The notes under the pieces were generated by a model that made no database searches, was not told where the DNA came from, and saw only the letters and a program-made list of their open reading frames with translations. From a virus (lineage: Duplodnaviria > Heunggongvirae > Uroviricota > Caudoviricetes), in IMG/VR virus record IMGVR_UViG_2541047897_000003: a DNA stretch of 9,362 nucleotides; one strand, 5' to 3'. The translations under genes were made by a program, and so were the position numbers. Shown piece after piece: positions 1,519 through 8,810 of this stretch (positions are counted from its first letter, which is position 1; every line of letters starts with the position of its first letter).

Positions 1519-2034
1519 TTATACGGCTTTTTTTACATCTTGTGGTTCTTGTGAAGGAGCTACAAAACCTTCCTGTTCATGAATACCATACTCTGACAAA
1601 ATCTCTTTGCGCGCATCTGCTGGTAAAGTTTCTAGCATTTGGGCTAGTTGTATGCACTCACGCGATACGCCGTGCAGAGATTGGATTTGAGTCTGATCAA
1701 AGATACTTGGCATTAGTGCTCCAAGTCCGCCTTTACTAAGTAGCTTTAATGCCCTCTGGATTTCCTCTGGTTCTAACTCTGCGACCAAAGCCATTAACAC
1801 AGAAGCTAACTTATAAGCTGGCTTATCGCTATCTAATAACTGCGCCCCTCCTAATTCTGCCTGAGTGGCATCAGGTAATGAGCTGATATGGTATTCATAA
1901 GCAACTCCCTTTACTCCTTTGATCTGTCTCTTTTTCCATCCCTCATTAGTTGCTTTGCGGCTAATACTACTTGCTGAAGACGGAAGACCAGCAACCCCTT
2001 GTAGCTCTTTAGCTGAAAACCATTCTTGTGTCAT
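1519..2034 (-). CDS. c: Prophage repressor c (immunity repressor), D108-like rather than Mu-like; N-terminal winged-helix DNA-binding domain shared with the transposase
   Basis: ORF track 1519..2037 (-). The likely start is the ATG at 2034-2032, preceded by GAGG ~7 nt upstream on the minus strand (the track starts at an upstream GTG). Position and orientation match Mu c. The N-terminus ([24 protein letters not shown]...[15 protein letters not shown]) parallels the N-terminus of the adjacent transposase. Confidence 0.8.
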
Positions 2035-2233
2035 CACAAACCTCGCTTTAAATACACTGTGTATTCAAAGAAACAAAAATATATTCATTTTAAAATCATC
2101 AAGATAGATGAAATTCAAACGAAATATTTGAATACATCATTGCATTGACAATGTATTCACACTAACATTGCTGCATACCTTGTCAGCTACCTTGCGGCGT
2201 AGCTGATGGCGTAGCTTGTGAGGATTGCATTTT
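2035..2233. promoter_or_regulatory. Divergent early/repressor promoter-operator region, overlapping the expected transposition enhancer; repeated TGTATTCA motifs
   Basis: 200-bp AT-rich interval between divergent c and ner. TGTATTCA at 2060-2067 and 2152-2159, its complement TGAATACA at 2129-2136, and a one-mismatch copy at 2080-2087. Perfect 15-bp palindrome AATACACTGTGTATT at 2051-2065. TTGACA at 2145-2150 is a candidate -35 for the rightward early promoter, but no good -10 was found. Confidence 0.55.
2182..2218. promoter_or_regulatory. Putative Ner operator: inverted repeat plus direct repeat just upstream of ner
   Basis: Inverted repeat TCAGCTAC (2183-2190) / GTAGCTGA (2199-2206) with an 8-bp spacer. 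Direct repeat GGCGTAGCT at 2197-2205 and 2208-2216, 11 bp apart (one helical turn). This is where Ner-type repressors are known to bind in Mu and D108. Confidence 0.4.
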
Positions 2234-4493: not shown

Positions 4494-5432
4494 ATGAATA
4501 TTTCCGATATTCGCGCAGGACTGCGCACGCTTGTAGAAAATGAAGAAACCACCTTTAAACAAATTGCTCTTGAGAGCGGACTTTCTACCGGAACTATCAG
4601 TAGTTTTATCAATGATAAGTACAACGGGGATAACGAGCGTATTTCACAAATTCTGCAACGCTGGCTGGAAAAATATCATGCAGTTGCAGAACTACCTGAA
4701 CCGCCCCGCTTTGTGGAAACGCAGACGGTAAAACAAATCTGGACAAGTATGCGTTTTGCCAGCCTGACTGAAAGTATTGCTGTTGTATGTGGCAATCCTG
4801 GTGTGGGCAAAACCGAAGCGGCCCGTGAATATCGCCGCACCAATAACAATGTCTGGATGATCACCATTACGCCATCCTGTGCCAGCGTTCTGGAATGTCT
4901 TACTGAACTGGCGTTTGAGCTGGGAATGAATGACGCACCACGCCGTAAAGGGCCGCTCTCCCGCGCCCTGCGACGTCGCCTTGAAGGTACACAGGGGCTG
5001 GTTATCATCGACGAAGCTGATCATCTTGGTGCCGAAGTTCTGGAAGAACTCCGCCTGTTACAGGAATCAACCCGTATTGGCCTTGTGCTGATGGGAAATC
5101 ACCGGGTTTATTCAAATATGACGGGGGGTAACAGAACGGTTGAATTTGCCCGTCTGTTTTCCCGTATTGCAAAGCGCACTGCAATTAATAAAACAAAAAA
5201 AGCCGATGTAAAAGCTATTGCGGATGCCTGGCAGATTAACGGCGAAAAAGAACTGGAGTTATTACAGCAGATTGCGCAGAAACCAGGTGCGCTTCGCATT
5301 CTGAATCATTCACTTCGCCTTGCCGCCATGACGGCTCACGGTAAAGGTGAGCGTGTTAACGAAGATTATCTGCGTCAGGCTTTCCGTGAATTAGACCTGG
5401 ACGTTGATATTTCAACGCTGCTGCGTAATTAA
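4494..5432 (+). CDS. B: Mu B protein (AAA+ ATPase, target-DNA capture and transposition activator)
   Basis: 312-aa ORF with GAGG 7 nt upstream. N-terminus MNISDIRAGLRTLVENEETTFKQIALESGLSTGTISSFIND (HTH). Walker A GNPGVGKTEA and Walker B LVIIDEADHL. Length and sequence match MuB from memory. Confidence 0.95.
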   Translation: MNISDIRAGLRTLVENEETTFKQIALESGLSTGTISSFINDKYNGDNERISQILQRWLEKYHAVAELPEPPRFVETQTVKQIWTSMRFASLTESIAVVCGNPGVGKTEAAREYRRTNNNVWMITITPSCASVLECLTELAFELGMNDAPRRKGPLSRALRRRLEGTQGLVIIDEADHLGAEVLEELRLLQESTRIGLVLMGNHRVYSNMTGGNRTVEFARLFSRIAKRTAINKTKKADVKAIADAWQINGEKELELLQQIAQKPGALRILNHSLRLAAMTAHGKGERVNEDYLRQAFRELDLDVDISTLLRN

Positions 5433-5447
5433 GAAGGAGAAGAAATT

Positions 5448-5675
5448 ATGATGGCCCGAAATATAAAAATGGCAACGGATGCGCAGAACTGGTTACAGGC
5501 GCGCGGGAGTCATGTAAATGAATCATATCTCGGCGTGGCGCGTCCGATTCTTGAAATCACTTACCCACCGGTGGAACTGGTAAAAAGCGCGGTCAGAATT
5601 ATGGAGCATAAGTCCGGGGTGGCCCGTTCTGTATGGACGGCCCGTCTTAATGGTTGCCAGATTATCTGGAGATAA
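5448..5675 (+). CDS. kil: Kil-like small early protein (assigned by position immediately downstream of B, as in Mu)
   Basis: 75-aa ORF (74 aa if started at the ATG at 5451). GGAG at 5436-5439. Tightly packed after B in the same operon. Functional assignment is by synteny only. Confidence 0.55.
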
Positions 5676-5677
5676 CG

Positions 5678-5908
5678 ATGTGTATTAAAGCTGAAAAATA
5701 TATTGAATGGGTTAAACACTGTCAGTGCCACGGGGTGCCGCTGACGACATATAAATGCCCCGGATGTGGTGAACAGATTATGACGCAATGCTCACCCGAA
5801 AAGGAAATTCGGGATTCCCTGACATGTTGTCCGTGGTGCAGCGCGGTTTTCTTTAAGCAGGTAAAAGGCGCGAAGGTAAAAGCCAGCGCAGTTATTCAGA
5901 ATCAATAA
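5678..5908 (+). CDS. Hypothetical small Cys-rich (putative zinc-binding) early protein
   Basis: The ATG at 5678 follows the kil stop (5673-5675) by 2 nt, with GGAG at 5667-5670; the track ORF 5654..5908 starts further upstream. The 76-aa product has 9 Cys: C15-x-C17, C27-x2-C30, C38, C50-C51-x2-C54. Confidence 0.55.
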   Translation: MCIKAEKYIEWVKHCQCHGVPLTTYKCPGCGEQIMTQCSPEKEIRDSLTCCPWCSAVFFKQVKGAKVKASAVIQNQ

Positions 5909-5919
5909 GGAGAAACAAA

Positions 5920-6189
5920 ATGGCAAAGGTTATCTTTGAGTTTACATGGCTGGAAAGTAGTGACGGTTGCAATGGGCGCAGAGAAGTTCTGGATGCAAAA
6001 GCATGTCTTGCAGATATCTCGCCAACGGAAAATACCGGGCCTCATGATTTACTGGCAAATATCGTCCTGACTATGGCTCCTGAAATTATTAAAAAGGCCA
6101 AAGATGAGATGCTGACCACTATGAAGAAAGTGGGTATGGAAGCTGAATGTGATTTAGTACCACATCCGGTGAATGCGGTTAAACATTAA
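5920..6189 (+). CDS. Hypothetical early protein (89 aa)
   Basis: ORF with a strong RBS (AAGGAGA ~8 nt upstream of the ATG), co-directional and tightly spaced within the early operon. No recognisable motif. Confidence 0.55.
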   Translation: MAKVIFEFTWLESSDGCNGRREVLDAKACLADISPTENTGPHDLLANIVLTMAPEIIKKAKDEMLTTMKKVGMEAECDLVPHPVNAVKH

Positions 6190-6209
6190 TTCGCAAAGGA
6201 ACGCTGACA

Positions 6210-6629
6210 ATGAACGTCAAAATCCGAAATGAAATTCAGGCATTAATCCGAATTCAGGAACGCAATAACAACGGTGGTGAATTACGCGAGTTTATTTGCG
6301 CCCGAAAAGTTGATGATTGTGGTGAAAAGACTTACCTGATTGCTTTCGACCATTACAGCATCTGTGCGCGTTATTGCGGCGAAAGCATATCCCGCGCCAT
6401 TGCGTCTGGCGATGCGTTTAACGTGGATTTATGGGAGTACGTCATGGACCGGGAATACATCTGCGCATCAGACCCCGAAGCCCGTGAAATGTGGCAGCGT
6501 ATCTGGCGCGATTACCGGTTAATGGCAAAAGGCTGGGCGCGCTGCTGTTATTCCTCGCTTGCCCTGAAAGCGGTTCAGTTATCGCTGCGGCATATTCCGG
6601 CATCACTGCGCGAGCCTCTGCTGTACTGA
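6210..6629 (+). CDS. Hypothetical early protein (139 aa)
   Basis: ORF with AAGGA upstream. Stop TGA at 6627-6629 abuts the next ATG (TGAATG). Several Cys and Trp residues; no recognisable catalytic motif. Confidence 0.55.
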   Translation: MNVKIRNEIQALIRIQERNNNGGELREFICARKVDDCGEKTYLIAFDHYSICARYCGESISRAIASGDAFNVDLWEYVMDREYICASDPEAREMWQRIWRDYRLMAKGWARCCYSSLALKAVQLSLRHIPASLREPLLY

Positions 6630-6929
6630 ATGGTGGCTGACATGAAGTGTAATCGTAAGCGCTGGTCACGCGAAGACCGGGAATTTATCGAAGCCAGTGT
6701 CGGGAAAATGACCGTTGAAGAAATGGCGGAAAAACTGAAAGTCGCCACAACCGCCCTCCGGGCACATGCCAGAAGGCACGGAATATCATTGTGTGTATAC
6801 CGAATCAGTGAACACGACAAATATTTATGTCGTGAACTTTATAAAGAAGGGCTGGCTATTCATGTCATTGCCCGAAAGATGGAATTAAGCAATCGAGCTG
6901 TATCCAGCATTGTATACAGCGGATATTAA
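6630..6929 (+). CDS. Hypothetical small DNA-binding protein with two helix-turn-helix-like segments
   Basis: 99-aa ORF; alternative start ATG at 6642, preceded by GGTGG. First segment RKRWSREDREFIEASVGKMTVEEMAEKLKVATTALRAHARRHGIS resembles the HTH of IS3-family OrfA and terminase small subunits. A second HTH-like stretch is GLAIHVIARKMELSNRAVSSIVYSG. Confidence 0.5.
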   Translation: MVADMKCNRKRWSREDREFIEASVGKMTVEEMAEKLKVATTALRAHARRHGISLCVYRISEHDKYLCRELYKEGLAIHVIARKMELSNRAVSSIVYSGY

Positions 6930-6948: not shown

Positions 6949-7473
6949 ATGGCTAAACCAGCAAAACGCATCAAAAGTGCCGCAGCGGCTTATGTGCCAC
7001 AAAACCGCGATGCGGTGATTACCGATATTAAACGCATCGGGGATTTACAGCGCGAAGCATCACGTCTGGAAACGGAAATGAATGATGCCATCGCGGAAAT
7101 TACGGAGAAATTTGCAGCCCGGATTGCACCGATTAAAACCGATATTGAAACCCTTTCAAAAGGCGTTCAGGGATGGTGTGAAGCGAACCGCGACGAACTG
7201 ACGAACGGCGGCAAAGTGAAGACGGCGAATCTTGTCACCGGTGATGTATCGTGGCGGGTCCGTCCACCATCAGTAAGTATTCGTGGTATGGATGCAGTGA
7301 TGGAAACGCTGGAGCGCCTTGGCCTGCAACGCTTTATTCGCACGAAGCAGGAAATCAACAAGGAGGCGATTTTACTGGAACCAAAAGCCGTCGCAGGTGT
7401 TGCCGGAATTACGGTTAAATCGGGAATTGAAGATTTTTCCATTATTCCATTTGAACAGGAAGCCGGTATTTAA
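6949..7473 (+). CDS. gam: Gam (Ku-like double-strand DNA-end-binding protein; host exonuclease inhibitor)
   Basis: 174-aa ORF with AGGAG ~10 nt upstream. Sequence MAKPAKRIKSAAAAYVPQNRDAVITDIKRIGDLQREASRLETEMNDAIAEI... matches Mu Gam from memory in length and sequence. Confidence 0.9.
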   Translation: MAKPAKRIKSAAAAYVPQNRDAVITDIKRIGDLQREASRLETEMNDAIAEITEKFAARIAPIKTDIETLSKGVQGWCEANRDELTNGGKVKTANLVTGDVSWRVRPPSVSIRGMDAVMETLERLGLQRFIRTKQEINKEAILLEPKAVAGVAGITVKSGIEDFSIIPFEQEAGI

Positions 7474-8102: not shown

Positions 8103-8632
8103 TGTTTTTTAAAACGTCAAATCCCGCAGCACTGCTGGCATGGGACCAGTTTATGGCGGACTGCCTGAAACTACGCGAAGAAGCCCGCCATCTTGATAAG
8201 GTTCTGGGCTGTGGTTGCCGGTCAGTATTCAGCACAGGTATTGGTGGGCGTCATTTTCATGGCGTGAATTTTCCGGGGAATGAGCGCCCCTTCTCGCGGG
8301 AGCTGTGGACCGTACAACGGCCCGCATCAGGTAACAGTTGCAGGCCCAGAACTTCGCGGATACCTGCTCATCTCAGGGAGCAGGCAAGAGAGCTGGCGAA
8401 AATATGGCAGGAGAATATTCCGGTCACTTACGCCCGCACAGATGCTCTCTTACCCGCACTGGGACTGGATTTCAGCGCAACAATATTCGGACCTCTCCAG
8501 TGGTTCCGTGTTGGTGATGTGATTTACGTCATGACGGGGATGACACCCGCACAAGGCCGCATGACTGAAATCCTTTCGGACGAATTTATCCGGGCGCAAA
8601 AACAGGCAGAGGTAAACAATGGAAAACAGTGA
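8102..8632 (+). CDS. Hypothetical early protein (176 aa)
   Basis: ATG at 8102 is preceded by a perfect AGGAGG (8089-8094) at 7 nt and overlaps the upstream stop (GTGATG). The track ORF 8063..8632 starts at an upstream TTG that lacks an RBS. Confidence 0.6.
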   Translation: MFFKTSNPAALLAWDQFMADCLKLREEARHLDKVLGCGCRSVFSTGIGGRHFHGVNFPGNERPFSRELWTVQRPASGNSCRPRTSRIPAHLREQARELAKIWQENIPVTYARTDALLPALGLDFSATIFGPLQWFRVGDVIYVMTGMTPAQGRMTEILSDEFIRAQKQAEVNNGKQ

Positions 8633-8810
8633 AACATCGTATTCGTGGCTGGGGAAATTTACCACGGTGAAACAGGAATGCCCGACCTGCGGTAATGAAT
8701 CCCCTGAATATCTGAAAGAGTGCCCTCATTGTGGCAGGCAGAAATGCAACCACTGCGATATGGGCGATGACACGGCGTGCATGAATTGTGAAGGTGAACA
8801 GAATGAATAA
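8619..8810 (+). CDS. Hypothetical small double zinc-ribbon protein (63 aa, four CxxC pairs)
   Basis: GAGG 7 nt upstream. Product contains CPTC...CPHC...CNHC...CMNC (four C-x2-C pairs) and an acidic C-terminus. Overlaps the upstream ORF by 14 nt. Confidence 0.55.
   Translation: MENSETSYSWLGKFTTVKQECPTCGNESPEYLKECPHCGRQKCNHCDMGDDTACMNCEGEQNE

Follow-up and report, generated by a model that had tools for sequence, protein, structure and literature searches.

The five small open reading frames (ORFs) that lie between B and gam in the window, by which we mean the whole 9,362-nucleotide stretch of DNA that was analyzed, are kil, gp6/E5, gp7/E6, gp8/E7 and gp9/E8, canonical genes of Mu's semi-essential early (SEE) region, carried by a Mu-type E. 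coli prophage that is visible over these 9.4 kb only. The sole real difference between this five-gene block and that of Mu is gp7, of which the window carries the other, equally common version. Both the identity of the block and the exchange of its gp7 cassette relative to Mu follow directly from sequence comparison. The explanation that best fits all of the observations, and in which we have considerable confidence, is that this is a standard Mu early block with a swapped gp7, and that the gp6 and gp7 positions form a hot-spot of gene exchange.

The ORFs occupy positions 5448-5675, 5678-5908, 5920-6189, 6210-6629 and 6630-6929, all on the same strand, with only 2, 11, 20 and 0 nt separating successive genes from kil through gp9. 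The block is anchored on its left by the gene for the MuB transposition ATPase (4494-5432, plus strand; 312 aa, 99.4% identical to Mu B) and on its right by the host-nuclease inhibitor gene gam (Mup10; 6949-7473, plus strand), whose product matches PF07352 with an E value of 4e-42. All seven genes run on one strand as B - kil - gp6 - gp7 - gp8 - gp9 - gam, the arrangement seen in Mu and D108. The five products are 75, 76, 89, 139 and 99 aa long, compared with 74, 76, 87, 139 and 99 aa in Mu and 75, 73, 89, 139 and 99 aa in D108, and all five are soluble, with zero transmembrane segments. Protein identity to Mu is 97% for Kil, 100% for gp6, 25% for gp7, 97% for gp8, 97% for gp9 and 100% for Gam. 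An earlier note on this DNA had described the interval as five small ORFs in the non-essential early region of a Mu-like prophage, the region to which kil maps and in which most ORFs have no assigned biochemical function, and that description holds: the ORFs are real, and the interval matches the Mu semi-essential block.

The first gene, kil (Mup05; 5448-5675, plus strand), begins 15 nt past the B stop codon, with the sequence AAGGAG 8 nt upstream of its start; the second ATG, at 5451, is an alternative start and is the one annotated in the Mu RefSeq record. Its product is 97-99% identical to the Kil proteins of Mu and D108 and belongs to phrog_2743 (E value of 4e-43). Homologs that are approximately 50% identical occur in divergent Mu-like elements, where they lie directly after B or one gene after it, and these carry the precomputed Pfam label PF26843 Kil_protein. 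Expression of Mu kil leads to spherical cells (Waggoner 1989, as cited in PMC3961180). By analogy, kil of the window would be the Mu host-killing gene, the killing and rounding phenotype being known for Mu kil only.

The gp7 cassette and candidate functions of its product

In a comparison with Mu over 50-nt segments, the identity of 96-100% is interrupted only from about 5940 to 6195, where it drops to 40-64%, and it is back at 98% at the gp8 ribosome-binding site. This trough marks a swapped DNA cassette of approximately 250 bp, at 5942-6193, that is exactly one ORF long, and it breaks the megablast match to Mu in two pieces. The ORF within it (gp7/E6 slot; 5920-6189, plus strand) encodes an 89-aa acidic protein with a pI of 5.25 that belongs to a D108-like family (F2, phrog_2230, E value of 6e-36), of which the window carries the allele that we designate a3. 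Mu gp7 falls in phrog_10252, and a BLASTP comparison of the window and Mu gp7 proteins gives no match. The window protein is 40% identical to D108 gp7 (E value of 2e-24). Its allele is found in 19 E. coli genomes, compared with 20 for the Mu allele, and also in sequenced phages. The early region as such occurs in approximately 90 complete E. coli genomes. Every gp7 allele is acidic.

The pace of change differs along the length of gp7. The dN/dS ratio is approximately 1.0 for residues 9-33 and 0.26 for residues 34-89, and near-neutral change within the five-gene block is confined to residues 9-33. An AF2 model of moderate confidence (pLDDT of 62) places a beta-hairpin at residues 3-31 and a helix at residues 41-70. 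Searches with this model returned an uninformative best match to an unnamed 82-aa protein in BFVD (E value of 4e-3) and, in the PDB, nothing below an E value of 0.29.

The slots were surveyed in 48 loci: 43 from IMG/VR, one from an E. coli genome, Mu (counted twice), D108 and the window itself. All 48 have an occupied gp7 slot, with F2 in 27 and the Mu-type family, F3, in 21. The gp6 slot holds a member of the predicted zinc-ribbon family in 29 loci, an unrelated 70-aa ORF in 5 and a frameshifted gene in 1, and it is empty in 13; the latter three states all occur among the IMG/VR loci (5/43, 1/43 and 13/43, respectively), with absence or replacement accounting for 18 of the 43, and gp6 is dispensable in many relatives. 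Alleles of gp6 and gp7 assort independently across the survey. In Klebsiella and Pluralibacter Mu-like prophages the order is B, kil, a gp9-like gene and a DUF3164 gene, with gp6, gp7, gp8 and Gam absent, and two other divergent Mu-like elements carry B, a gp8-like gene, kil and a variable ORF. We propose that the position just after kil, occupied by gp6 and gp7, would be a hot-spot of recombination for accessory proteins that are small, soluble and directed at the host, in which gp6 appears to be kept, replaced or lost among relatives and gp7 seems always to be present as one of two unrelated-looking one-ORF cassettes. If so, the genes that different lineages plug into this position would include gp6, the 70-aa ORF (F5), both gp7 families and the unrelated ORFs of two further loci (85 aa in L054 and 117 aa in L050).

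Mu gp7 (NP_050611.1) has been identified as Gnarl2, an O-antigen modifier that causes a downshift of O-antigen bands in ECOR1 and ECOR22 and sensitizes cells to T5 by 10^5-6-fold (Silas et al. 2025, PMC12373910); the preprint also places gnarl2 among the accessory genes that are lethal in some hosts, though not in all. Among its genes, gp7 alone sets this prophage apart from Mu, and the slot, in the form of the Mu allele, was recently found to alter host O-antigen. Apart from kil, it is on gp7 (Mu allele) that experimental evidence of a host interaction falls, a gene that the earlier note had not singled out. Within the slot, the Mu version is the one that shifts the O-antigen ladder, and the window version is a sub-allele of its own within the D108-like family.

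The window protein and Gnarl2 have the slot between gp6 and gp8 in common. Both are soluble and acidic, they are of similar length (89 and 87 aa, respectively), their first eight residues are shared apart from I/F substitutions at positions 6 and 8, and both end in His. The slot is also polymorphic, as would be expected of an accessory gene. However, the two proteins belong to different PHROGs, sequence homology is undetectable beyond the octapeptide, and the O-antigen phenotype is reported for the Mu allele alone. An apparent distant homology between F2 and F3 (hhalign probability of 46%, E value of 2e-4) was dropped after truncation and column-shuffle controls: once the N-terminal octapeptide is removed, the hhalign score of 11.1 is at the background level of shuffled columns (9.7 ± 1.9).

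Drawing on position, size, charge and evolutionary behavior, which are the sole grounds for the analogy, we tentatively suggest that the window gp7 could be a functional analog of Gnarl2, that is, a small acidic protein that may bind a host envelope or O-antigen-pathway factor with a specificity that would be set by the fast-evolving hairpin at residues 9-33. The alternative that survives best, and which we regard as a serious contender although it falls somewhat short of an even chance, is that F2 proteins are unrelated to O-antigen and serve in counter-defense, in superinfection exclusion or as a trigger or decoy in abortive infection, from within the same swappable slot. Functionally different genes are common in accessory hot-spots, homology to Gnarl2 is undetectable, a fast-evolving hairpin suits any arms-race interface, and the lethality of gnarl2 in some hosts only implies that the products of the slot need not share one mode of action. 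Against this, the window protein matches no defense or anti-defense family in PADLOC and has no structural analog, and the length, acidity, N-terminal octapeptide and C-terminal His that F2 and F3 share weakly suggest a common origin or role. Extended to its family, the Gnarl2 analogy leads to a possible, and still speculative, picture in which the D108-like gp7 proteins constitute a second, non-homologous family of Gnarl-type surface modifiers, or else of counter-defense proteins, with residues 9-33 governing host-strain specificity and with the post-kil hot-spot operating across Mu-like phages. Three gp7 cassettes circulate in E. coli at similar frequency.

The conserved and accessory neighbors of gp7

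The gp6/E5 gene (Mup06; 5678-5908, plus strand) encodes a 76-aa protein that is assigned to phrog_3786, a family of unknown function. The earlier note had pointed to nine Cys residues in CxC, CxxC and CCxxC arrangements in this product. The count and the arrangements are correct (positions 2, 15, 17, 27, 30, 38, 50, 51 and 54), but conservation among gp6 alleles extends to no more than five of these residues. In a comparison of four alleles, which share 76-100% identity with the window protein, C27, C30, C50, C51 and C54 never vary, whereas C2, C15, C17 and C38 are each replaced in one or more. The conserved residues include two CxxC knuckles approximately 20 residues apart, C27-P-G-C30 and C51-P-W-C54 (CPxC…CCPWC), and gp6 is probably a C4 zinc ribbon, a prediction that draws on this pattern of conservation. 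Scores against zinc-ribbon models are below cut-off (18.0 bits versus 31.3 for the FmdB zinc ribbon and 15 versus 24.5 for Zn_ribbon_ACC), and the zinc-ribbon-type matches in the PDB all have E values of at least 0.07.

The gp9/E8 gene (Mup09; 6630-6929, plus strand) encodes a 99-aa basic protein with a pI of 9.4 that matches phrog_323, "transcriptional regulator, D5-like" (E value of 7e-28). An alternative start at Met5 (6642) gives a 95-aa form, which is the form that PGAP calls and that most homologs have. Two helix-turn-helix (HTH)-like segments, the first of IS3-OrfA type, had been proposed for this protein, and profile searches recover both, albeit below Pfam cut-offs: residues 9-45 match HTH_Tnp_1 (IS3 OrfA family) with an E value of 6e-4, and in the same whole-protein scan residues 69-94 match GerE and HTH_23 with E values of 0.03-0.1. 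No Pfam HTH gathering threshold is passed by gp9, the best score being 20.4 bits versus 24.1 for HTH_Tnp_1. When the sequences were split, the N-terminal half of the window protein by itself matched RWP-RK and HTH_Tnp_1 (E values of 3e-4 to 5e-3), and for two homologs the N-terminal halves matched HTH_11, HTH_23 and MarR_2 and the C-terminal halves HTH_23 and HTH_28 (E values of 7e-3 to 8e-5). Matches in the split scan are exclusively of DNA-binding or HTH type; two of the seven fragments had no match at E ≤ 0.01, namely the window protein's C-terminal half and, from a three-module homolog (P0055), the first module. Unsplit members of the family reach 2e-11 for HTH_11 and 1e-10 for HTH_23. The two modules of gp9 are therefore supported at the level of profiles.

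A related architecture is seen in 2LVS, which we take to be the archaeal homeodomain-like repeat-binding protein Cbp2. Its chain 2lvs_A matches gp9 through two separate stretches (E value of 0.008), and the NCBIfam model HTH_Cbp1 (CRISPR DNA repeat-binding protein Cbp1) does so with an E value of 0.001. What gp9 appears to have in common with these proteins is that a single small basic protein combines two short HTH modules of three helices each; the scores lie far under the family cut-offs (18.9 bits versus 140 for HTH_Cbp1) and gp9 has no CRISPR context, so the likeness is one of architecture only. We consider gp9 to be a conserved module that would comprise two three-helix HTH units and that most likely binds DNA.

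Mu genetics has established that the SEE region is dispensable for laboratory growth, and small metal-binding and DNA-binding proteins encoded there might be imagined to inhibit host processes or host defense systems, as the earlier note had proposed for gp6 and gp9. Both are small early proteins, and the presence, absence and replacement of gp6, together with its relatively relaxed dN/dS, are typical of accessory genes. Even so, we consider inhibition by either protein to be improbable. Neither has a link to such a role through PADLOC, Pfam or the PDB, neither matches defense-related models in PADLOC, and a search of the accessible literature found no publication on either; searches by RefSeq accession returned nothing for Kil, gp6, gp8, gp9 or D108 gp7. 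Apart from its HTH modules, gp9 contains no recognizable domain, which points to DNA binding or regulation. Its retention beside kil in Mu-like prophages where gp6, gp7, gp8 and Gam are all missing is more in keeping with a DNA-binding regulator than with a fast-evolving inhibitor.

The remaining gene, gp8/E7 (Mup08; 6210-6629, plus strand), encodes a 139-aa protein of phrog_3690, a family of unknown function, and gives no match in Pfam, NCBIfam or the PDB. An exhaustive profile search of 1.84 billion representatives yielded 11 matches. They comprise a single full-length cluster, fragments, a call with a frameshift (P0031) and two remote relatives, both of which sit between B and kil in other Mu-like elements. 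A scan of genome contigs gave 132 pattern matches, 0 of which were confirmed by tblastn. The AF2 model of gp8 was unusable (pLDDT of 47). Like gp9, gp8 is a conserved module of the block, in its case an orphan family limited to Mu-like early operons.

Coding status and gene number of the block

All five genes are under purifying selection, with pairwise dN/dS values across related loci of 0.09 for kil, 0.27 for gp6, 0.33 for the gp7 family, 0.18 for gp8 and 0.28 for gp9. Good Shine-Dalgarno sequences precede kil, gp6, gp7 and gp8, and gp9 starts at a TGAATG stop/start junction with gp8. A search of the block for internal promoter and terminator signals found none in excess of chance. Given that the five cistrons are situated downstream of A and B, share their strand, are tightly packed, lack an excess of internal signals and are served either by ribosome-binding sites of their own or by stop/start coupling, we consider them most likely to be translated from a long early transcript, as in Mu, from whose biology we infer this.

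ORFs that are antisense to or overlap the block, such as 5561-5788 (minus strand), 6442-6669 (minus strand) and 5972-6070 (plus strand), were taken to be shadows, given that selective constraint falls on the annotated frame.

That some of the five ORFs are chance open frames is a notion to which we give virtually no credence: in NZ_CP098195, whose prophage is identical, PGAP does not call gp6, and the old M64097 record has several antisense "putative" ORFs across the region, but the frames are kept in dozens of loci under the constraint given above, every ORF has a ribosome-binding site or translational coupling, and every one has a match to a PHROG family that spans all or nearly all of its length. 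The same negligible weight falls on the reading that this prophage gained one of its ORFs between kil and gam as an additional gene, which had been raised on the premise that canonical Mu has three ORFs there and for which the gp7 DNA, unalignable with Mu, could be mistaken as an insertion; it is refuted by annotation and protein comparison, since Mu (NC_000929, M64097; Mup06-09, formerly E5-E8) and D108 carry four each, at matching positions and sizes, gene-for-gene comparison shows the same block, and the non-aligning segment swaps the 87-aa gp7 of Mu for an 89-aa ORF and adds nothing.

As a discovery, this analysis carries little weight. Its value is corrective and practical, in that it settles the number of ORFs between kil and gam in Mu at four and replaces the nine-Cys description of gp6 with that of a probable, conserved C4 ribbon.

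Relation to Mu, D108 and other phages

Mu Mup05-Mup09 (NC_000929, M64097) share order, strand, spacing and sizes with the window block, and identity is 97-100% for the products of kil, gp6, gp8 and gp9; the difference lies in the coding DNA of gp7, whose 25% identity is a global value with no local BLASTP alignment. These near-identical orthologs in Mu and D108 are for the most part without a characterized function. D108 gp05-gp09 (NC_013594) comprise the same five genes and include a gp7 of the same family as that of the window, but the N-terminal third of this D108 protein is practically unalignable with the window allele and D108 gp6 is three residues shorter.

Further close relatives are Escherichia virus Mu_3F6 (LR595867), Escherichia phage PhiR68_1 (PV340575) and the Yersinia phages vB_YpM_5 and vB_YpM_6, each of which matches the entire 1.6-kb interval at full length with 96-99% identity. 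An 89-aa ORF is annotated at the gp7 slot in both Mu_3F6 and PhiR68_1, and PhiR68_1 also has its immunity region in common with the window. A "dTDP-glucose pyrophosphorylase" label in LR595867, considered as a link to O-antigen, proved to be spurious: it is attached to gp9, the 95-aa HTH protein, in which a domain of this kind is lacking. These four phages show no substantive difference from the window, and their products are labeled hypothetical. The block is thus the textbook Mu early region, and its exact sequence, including the gp7 allele, is already present in public phage and E. coli records.

Layout of the prophage left end and its early genes

The window covers the host junction and the leftmost part of an E. 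coli prophage of the Mu type. Host sequence occupies bases 1-1180 and includes phoE on the minus strand (1-1062; NCBIfam PhoE, 782 bits); of 5426 complete E. coli genomes, 5407 match this flank. Since the Mu left end (TGTATTGATTCAC…) begins, by sequence, at position 1181, the prophage is inserted in the regulatory region of phoE, approximately 125 bp before the start of that gene. A prophage in NZ_CP098195 is otherwise identical to this one, but is inserted at yqeB/arcC. The left end is followed by the c repressor gene (1519-2037, minus strand), ner, A, B (4494-5432), five small ORFs (5448-6929), gam (6949-7473) and more early genes. Within the immunity region (1181-2700; c, ner and the A N-terminus), Mu DNA matched only 1181-1611 and D108 DNA gave no match; among phages, PhiR68_1 (PV340575) alone matches over the full length (99.8%). 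The region is thus neither of Mu type nor of D108 type, and looks like a third type of immunity within the Muviruses of E. coli.

The five ORFs are located where the earlier note had placed them, all on the plus strand: kil (5448-5675), gp6/E5 (5678-5908), gp7/E6 (5920-6189), gp8/E7 (6210-6629) and gp9/E8 (6630-6929). They are separated by 2, 11, 20 and 0 nt. Shine-Dalgarno sequences of the AAGGAG, GGAG or AAGGAA type lie 6-9 nt 5' of kil, gp6, gp7 and gp8, and gp9 starts at a TGAATG stop/start junction; an alternative gp9 start at Met5 (6642), which yields 95 aa, is the one chosen by PGAP and in most homologues. Promoter-like and terminator-like sites within the block do not exceed their frequency in shuffled sequence, which fits a polycistronic early message. 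Mu, D108, one E. coli genome and the 45 IMG/VR loci that gp8 had retrieved were compared pairwise for dN/dS. The values are kil 0.09, gp6 0.27, gp8 0.18, gp9 0.28, and 0.33 and 0.24 for the D108-like and Mu-like families of gp7, respectively; the reference genes B and gam give 0.08 and 0.09. By this measure, all five ORFs are real genes.

The products of kil, gp6, gp8 and gp9

Homologues of Kil with approximately 50% identity (precomputed label PF26843) are encoded downstream of B in all divergent Mu-like elements examined. Prophages of Klebsiella, Raoultella and Pluralibacter have the order B-kil-gp9-like-DUF3164 and are missing gp6, gp7, gp8 and Gam. In two other elements (L050, L054) the order is B-gp8-like-kil, an unrelated ORF (117 aa in one, 85 aa in the other) and DUF3164. 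DUF3164 stands at the place of gam in these divergent prophages, and their early operons are shorter. Given that Kil follows B throughout and that gp8 and gp9 occur in only some elements, kil is the constant member, and gp8 and gp9 are lineage-specific modules. The site directly after kil is repeatedly occupied by variable small ORFs. PHROGs and RefSeq label Kil with septation inhibition ("Kil protein for bacterial septation inhibition"), which is questionable because it conflicts with the spherical cells that Mu kil produces according to Waggoner 1989, as that work is cited in PMC3961180.

The gp6 product has nine Cys residues in the CxC/CxxC/CCxxC spacing described in the earlier note. Across four alleles that are 76-100% identical to the window protein, C2, C15, C17 and C38 are each substituted at least once. 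Only C27, C30, C50, C51 and C54 are invariant; the conserved core is therefore CPxC-(20)-CCPWC, and thus would be a classical two-knuckle zinc ribbon. Matches to curated models are sub-threshold only (FmdB zinc ribbon, 18 bits, cut-off 31; an ECs_2282-type model, E 0.005), and the best PDB sequence match has an E value of 0.07. Of 43 IMG/VR loci that contain kil as well as gp8, the gp6 slot holds gp6 in 24, a frameshifted copy in 1, an unrelated 70-aa ORF in 5 and nothing in 13, and gp6 is dispensable to the lineage. The 70-aa replacement is an acidic ORF (MMVINIHDSLGIGRLINLDN…HHHAENVFCEL…) found in L013 (986-1198), L020 (2485-2697), L028, L029 and L032. The identical prophage of NZ_CP098195 has no PGAP call for gp6 (L004, 6276-6521). 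Farther along the early region of the window, a second small Cys-rich ORF (8619-8810, plus strand) encodes a 63-aa protein in which CxxC occurs four times (CPTCG…CPHCG…CNHC…CMNC) and which has no match in NCBIfam.

No match to gp8 was found in Pfam, NCBIfam, PADLOC or the PDB. When 1.84 billion cluster representatives were searched exhaustively with a profile, 11 proteins were found, namely one full-length cluster, fragments, one frameshifted call and two remote relatives (P0068 and P0069). The frameshifted call, P0031 (149 aa, 43% identity), is a gp8 gene called with a shift of frame; its middle part corresponds to the alternative frame of the window at 6491-6640. In other Mu-like elements, the genes of both remote relatives have MuB on one side and a Kil-family gene on the other; gp8 is thus an orphan family limited to Mu-type early operons. 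An AF2 model of gp8 was discarded (pLDDT 47).

The earlier note proposed two HTH-like segments in gp9, the first resembling IS3 OrfA. Both are seen at the profile level, but below curated thresholds: residues 9-45 match HTH_Tnp_1 (E 6e-4; 20.4 bits, cut-off 24.1), and residues 69-94 match GerE and HTH_23 (E 0.03-0.1). When the sequence was split, the N-terminal half matched RWP-RK and HTH_Tnp_1, and the C-terminal half alone matched nothing at E<=0.01; the C-terminal halves of two homologues, P0057 and P0055, match HTH_23. Family members reach 2e-11 with HTH_11 and 1e-10 with HTH_23, and P0055, from Pluralibacter, has an extra copy of the first module. The best PDB sequence match is 2lvs_A (E 0.008, via two separate stretches), and the Cbp1 repeat-binding HTH family of NCBIfam is matched weakly. 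The protein is basic (pI 9.4), and a DNA-binding regulator is the most defensible guess as to its role.

The gp7 cassette and its relation to Gnarl2

DNA identity to Mu falls to 40-64% at approximately 5940-6195 and is 96-100% elsewhere. The similarity has ended by roughly codon 9 of gp7 and resumes at the ribosome-binding site of gp8, and the swapped unit is exactly one ORF. The gp7 of the window belongs with that of D108 to phrog_2230, and Mu gp7 belongs to phrog_10252. Across a survey of 48 loci the gp7 slot is never empty (D108-like in 27, Mu-like in 21), and both families combine freely with different gp6 states. Of the 5426 complete E. coli genomes, 19 have the window-type cassette, 20 the Mu-type and 13 the D108-type. 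The window allele forms a branch of its own within the D108-like family; its close relatives, 76-94% identical, come from E. coli, Yersinia enterocolitica and Cronobacter. In this gp7, dN/dS is approximately 1 at residues 9-33 and 0.26 at the constrained residues 34-89; a modest AF2 model (pLDDT 62) predicts a beta-hairpin for the variable part and a long helix for the conserved part.

In a screen of 200 phage accessory genes, Silas et al. (Nat Commun 2025, PMC12373910; preprint 10.1101/2023.04.06.535777) gave Mu E6/Mup07 (NP_050611.1) the name gnarl2. When it is expressed, the O-antigen ladder of ECOR1 and ECOR22 shifts downward and T5 plates 10^5-6-fold better (PMC12373910), and it is among the genes lethal in some hosts, not all (preprint). 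In the supplements consulted for PMC12373910, the Mu allele is the only gp7 present, and our search found no follow-up literature on gnarl2.

The window gp7 family and Gnarl2 have in common their length, acidity, first eight residues (MAKVI[FI]E[FI]) and terminal His, and comparison of the full profiles gives E 2e-4. The common octapeptide falls in the conserved recombination flank, and without it the score of 11.1 does not stand out from column-shuffled controls (9.7 ± 1.9). Fold searches with the model returned nothing usable. Therefore, membership of the window gp7 in the Gnarl2 family is not established, and the likeness is a positional and physicochemical analogy only. For gp6 and gp7 together, the most defensible guess is a role as host-directed accessory proteins that can be swapped.

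Comparison with Mu and D108

Relative to the B of the window, the MuB sequences of L005-L047 (B at ~1285-2230, locus coordinates) form four classes of divergence (approximately 99%, 90%, 75% and 41-44% identity). Since these loci are otherwise 80-100% identical across the kil-gam genes, this points to mosaic exchange that extends to the transposition ATPase. The gp11 start lies approximately 550 bp farther downstream than in the window (~4914 vs 4363, locus coordinates) in L005, L010, L016, L027, L031, L033 and L036, with the same shift in the truncated L013 (start at ~3415), which implies an extra insert between gam and gp11, probably an additional ORF.

What the earlier note read from the sequence itself is right, but its comparison with Mu is not: it put only three ORFs between kil and gam in canonical Mu and suggested that one here may be extra. 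The records of Mu (NC_000929, M64097) and D108 (NC_013594) annotate the same five genes, kil (Mup05) and the four from gp6 to gp9, with gam (Mup10) next; the count of three was therefore mistaken, and no ORF is extra. The window proteins are identical to those of Mu at 97% (kil), 100% (gp6), 25% (gp7), 97% (gp8), 97% (gp9) and 100% (gam); relative to D108, gp7 is 40% identical and the others are 93-100% identical. Phages Mu_3F6, PhiR68_1, vB_YpM_5 and vB_YpM_6 contain the full interval at 96-99% identity, and the same five ORFs are annotated in the first two. The gp9 of Mu_3F6 (L056, LR595867, 1543-1830) is labelled "COG1209: dTDP-glucose pyrophosphorylase" and is actually a 95-aa HTH protein. 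A specialist would find nothing surprising in the block or in the proposed roles: it is the canonical Mu early region, already sequenced and annotated, and its sole distinguishing feature relative to Mu is a common alternative gp7 cassette.
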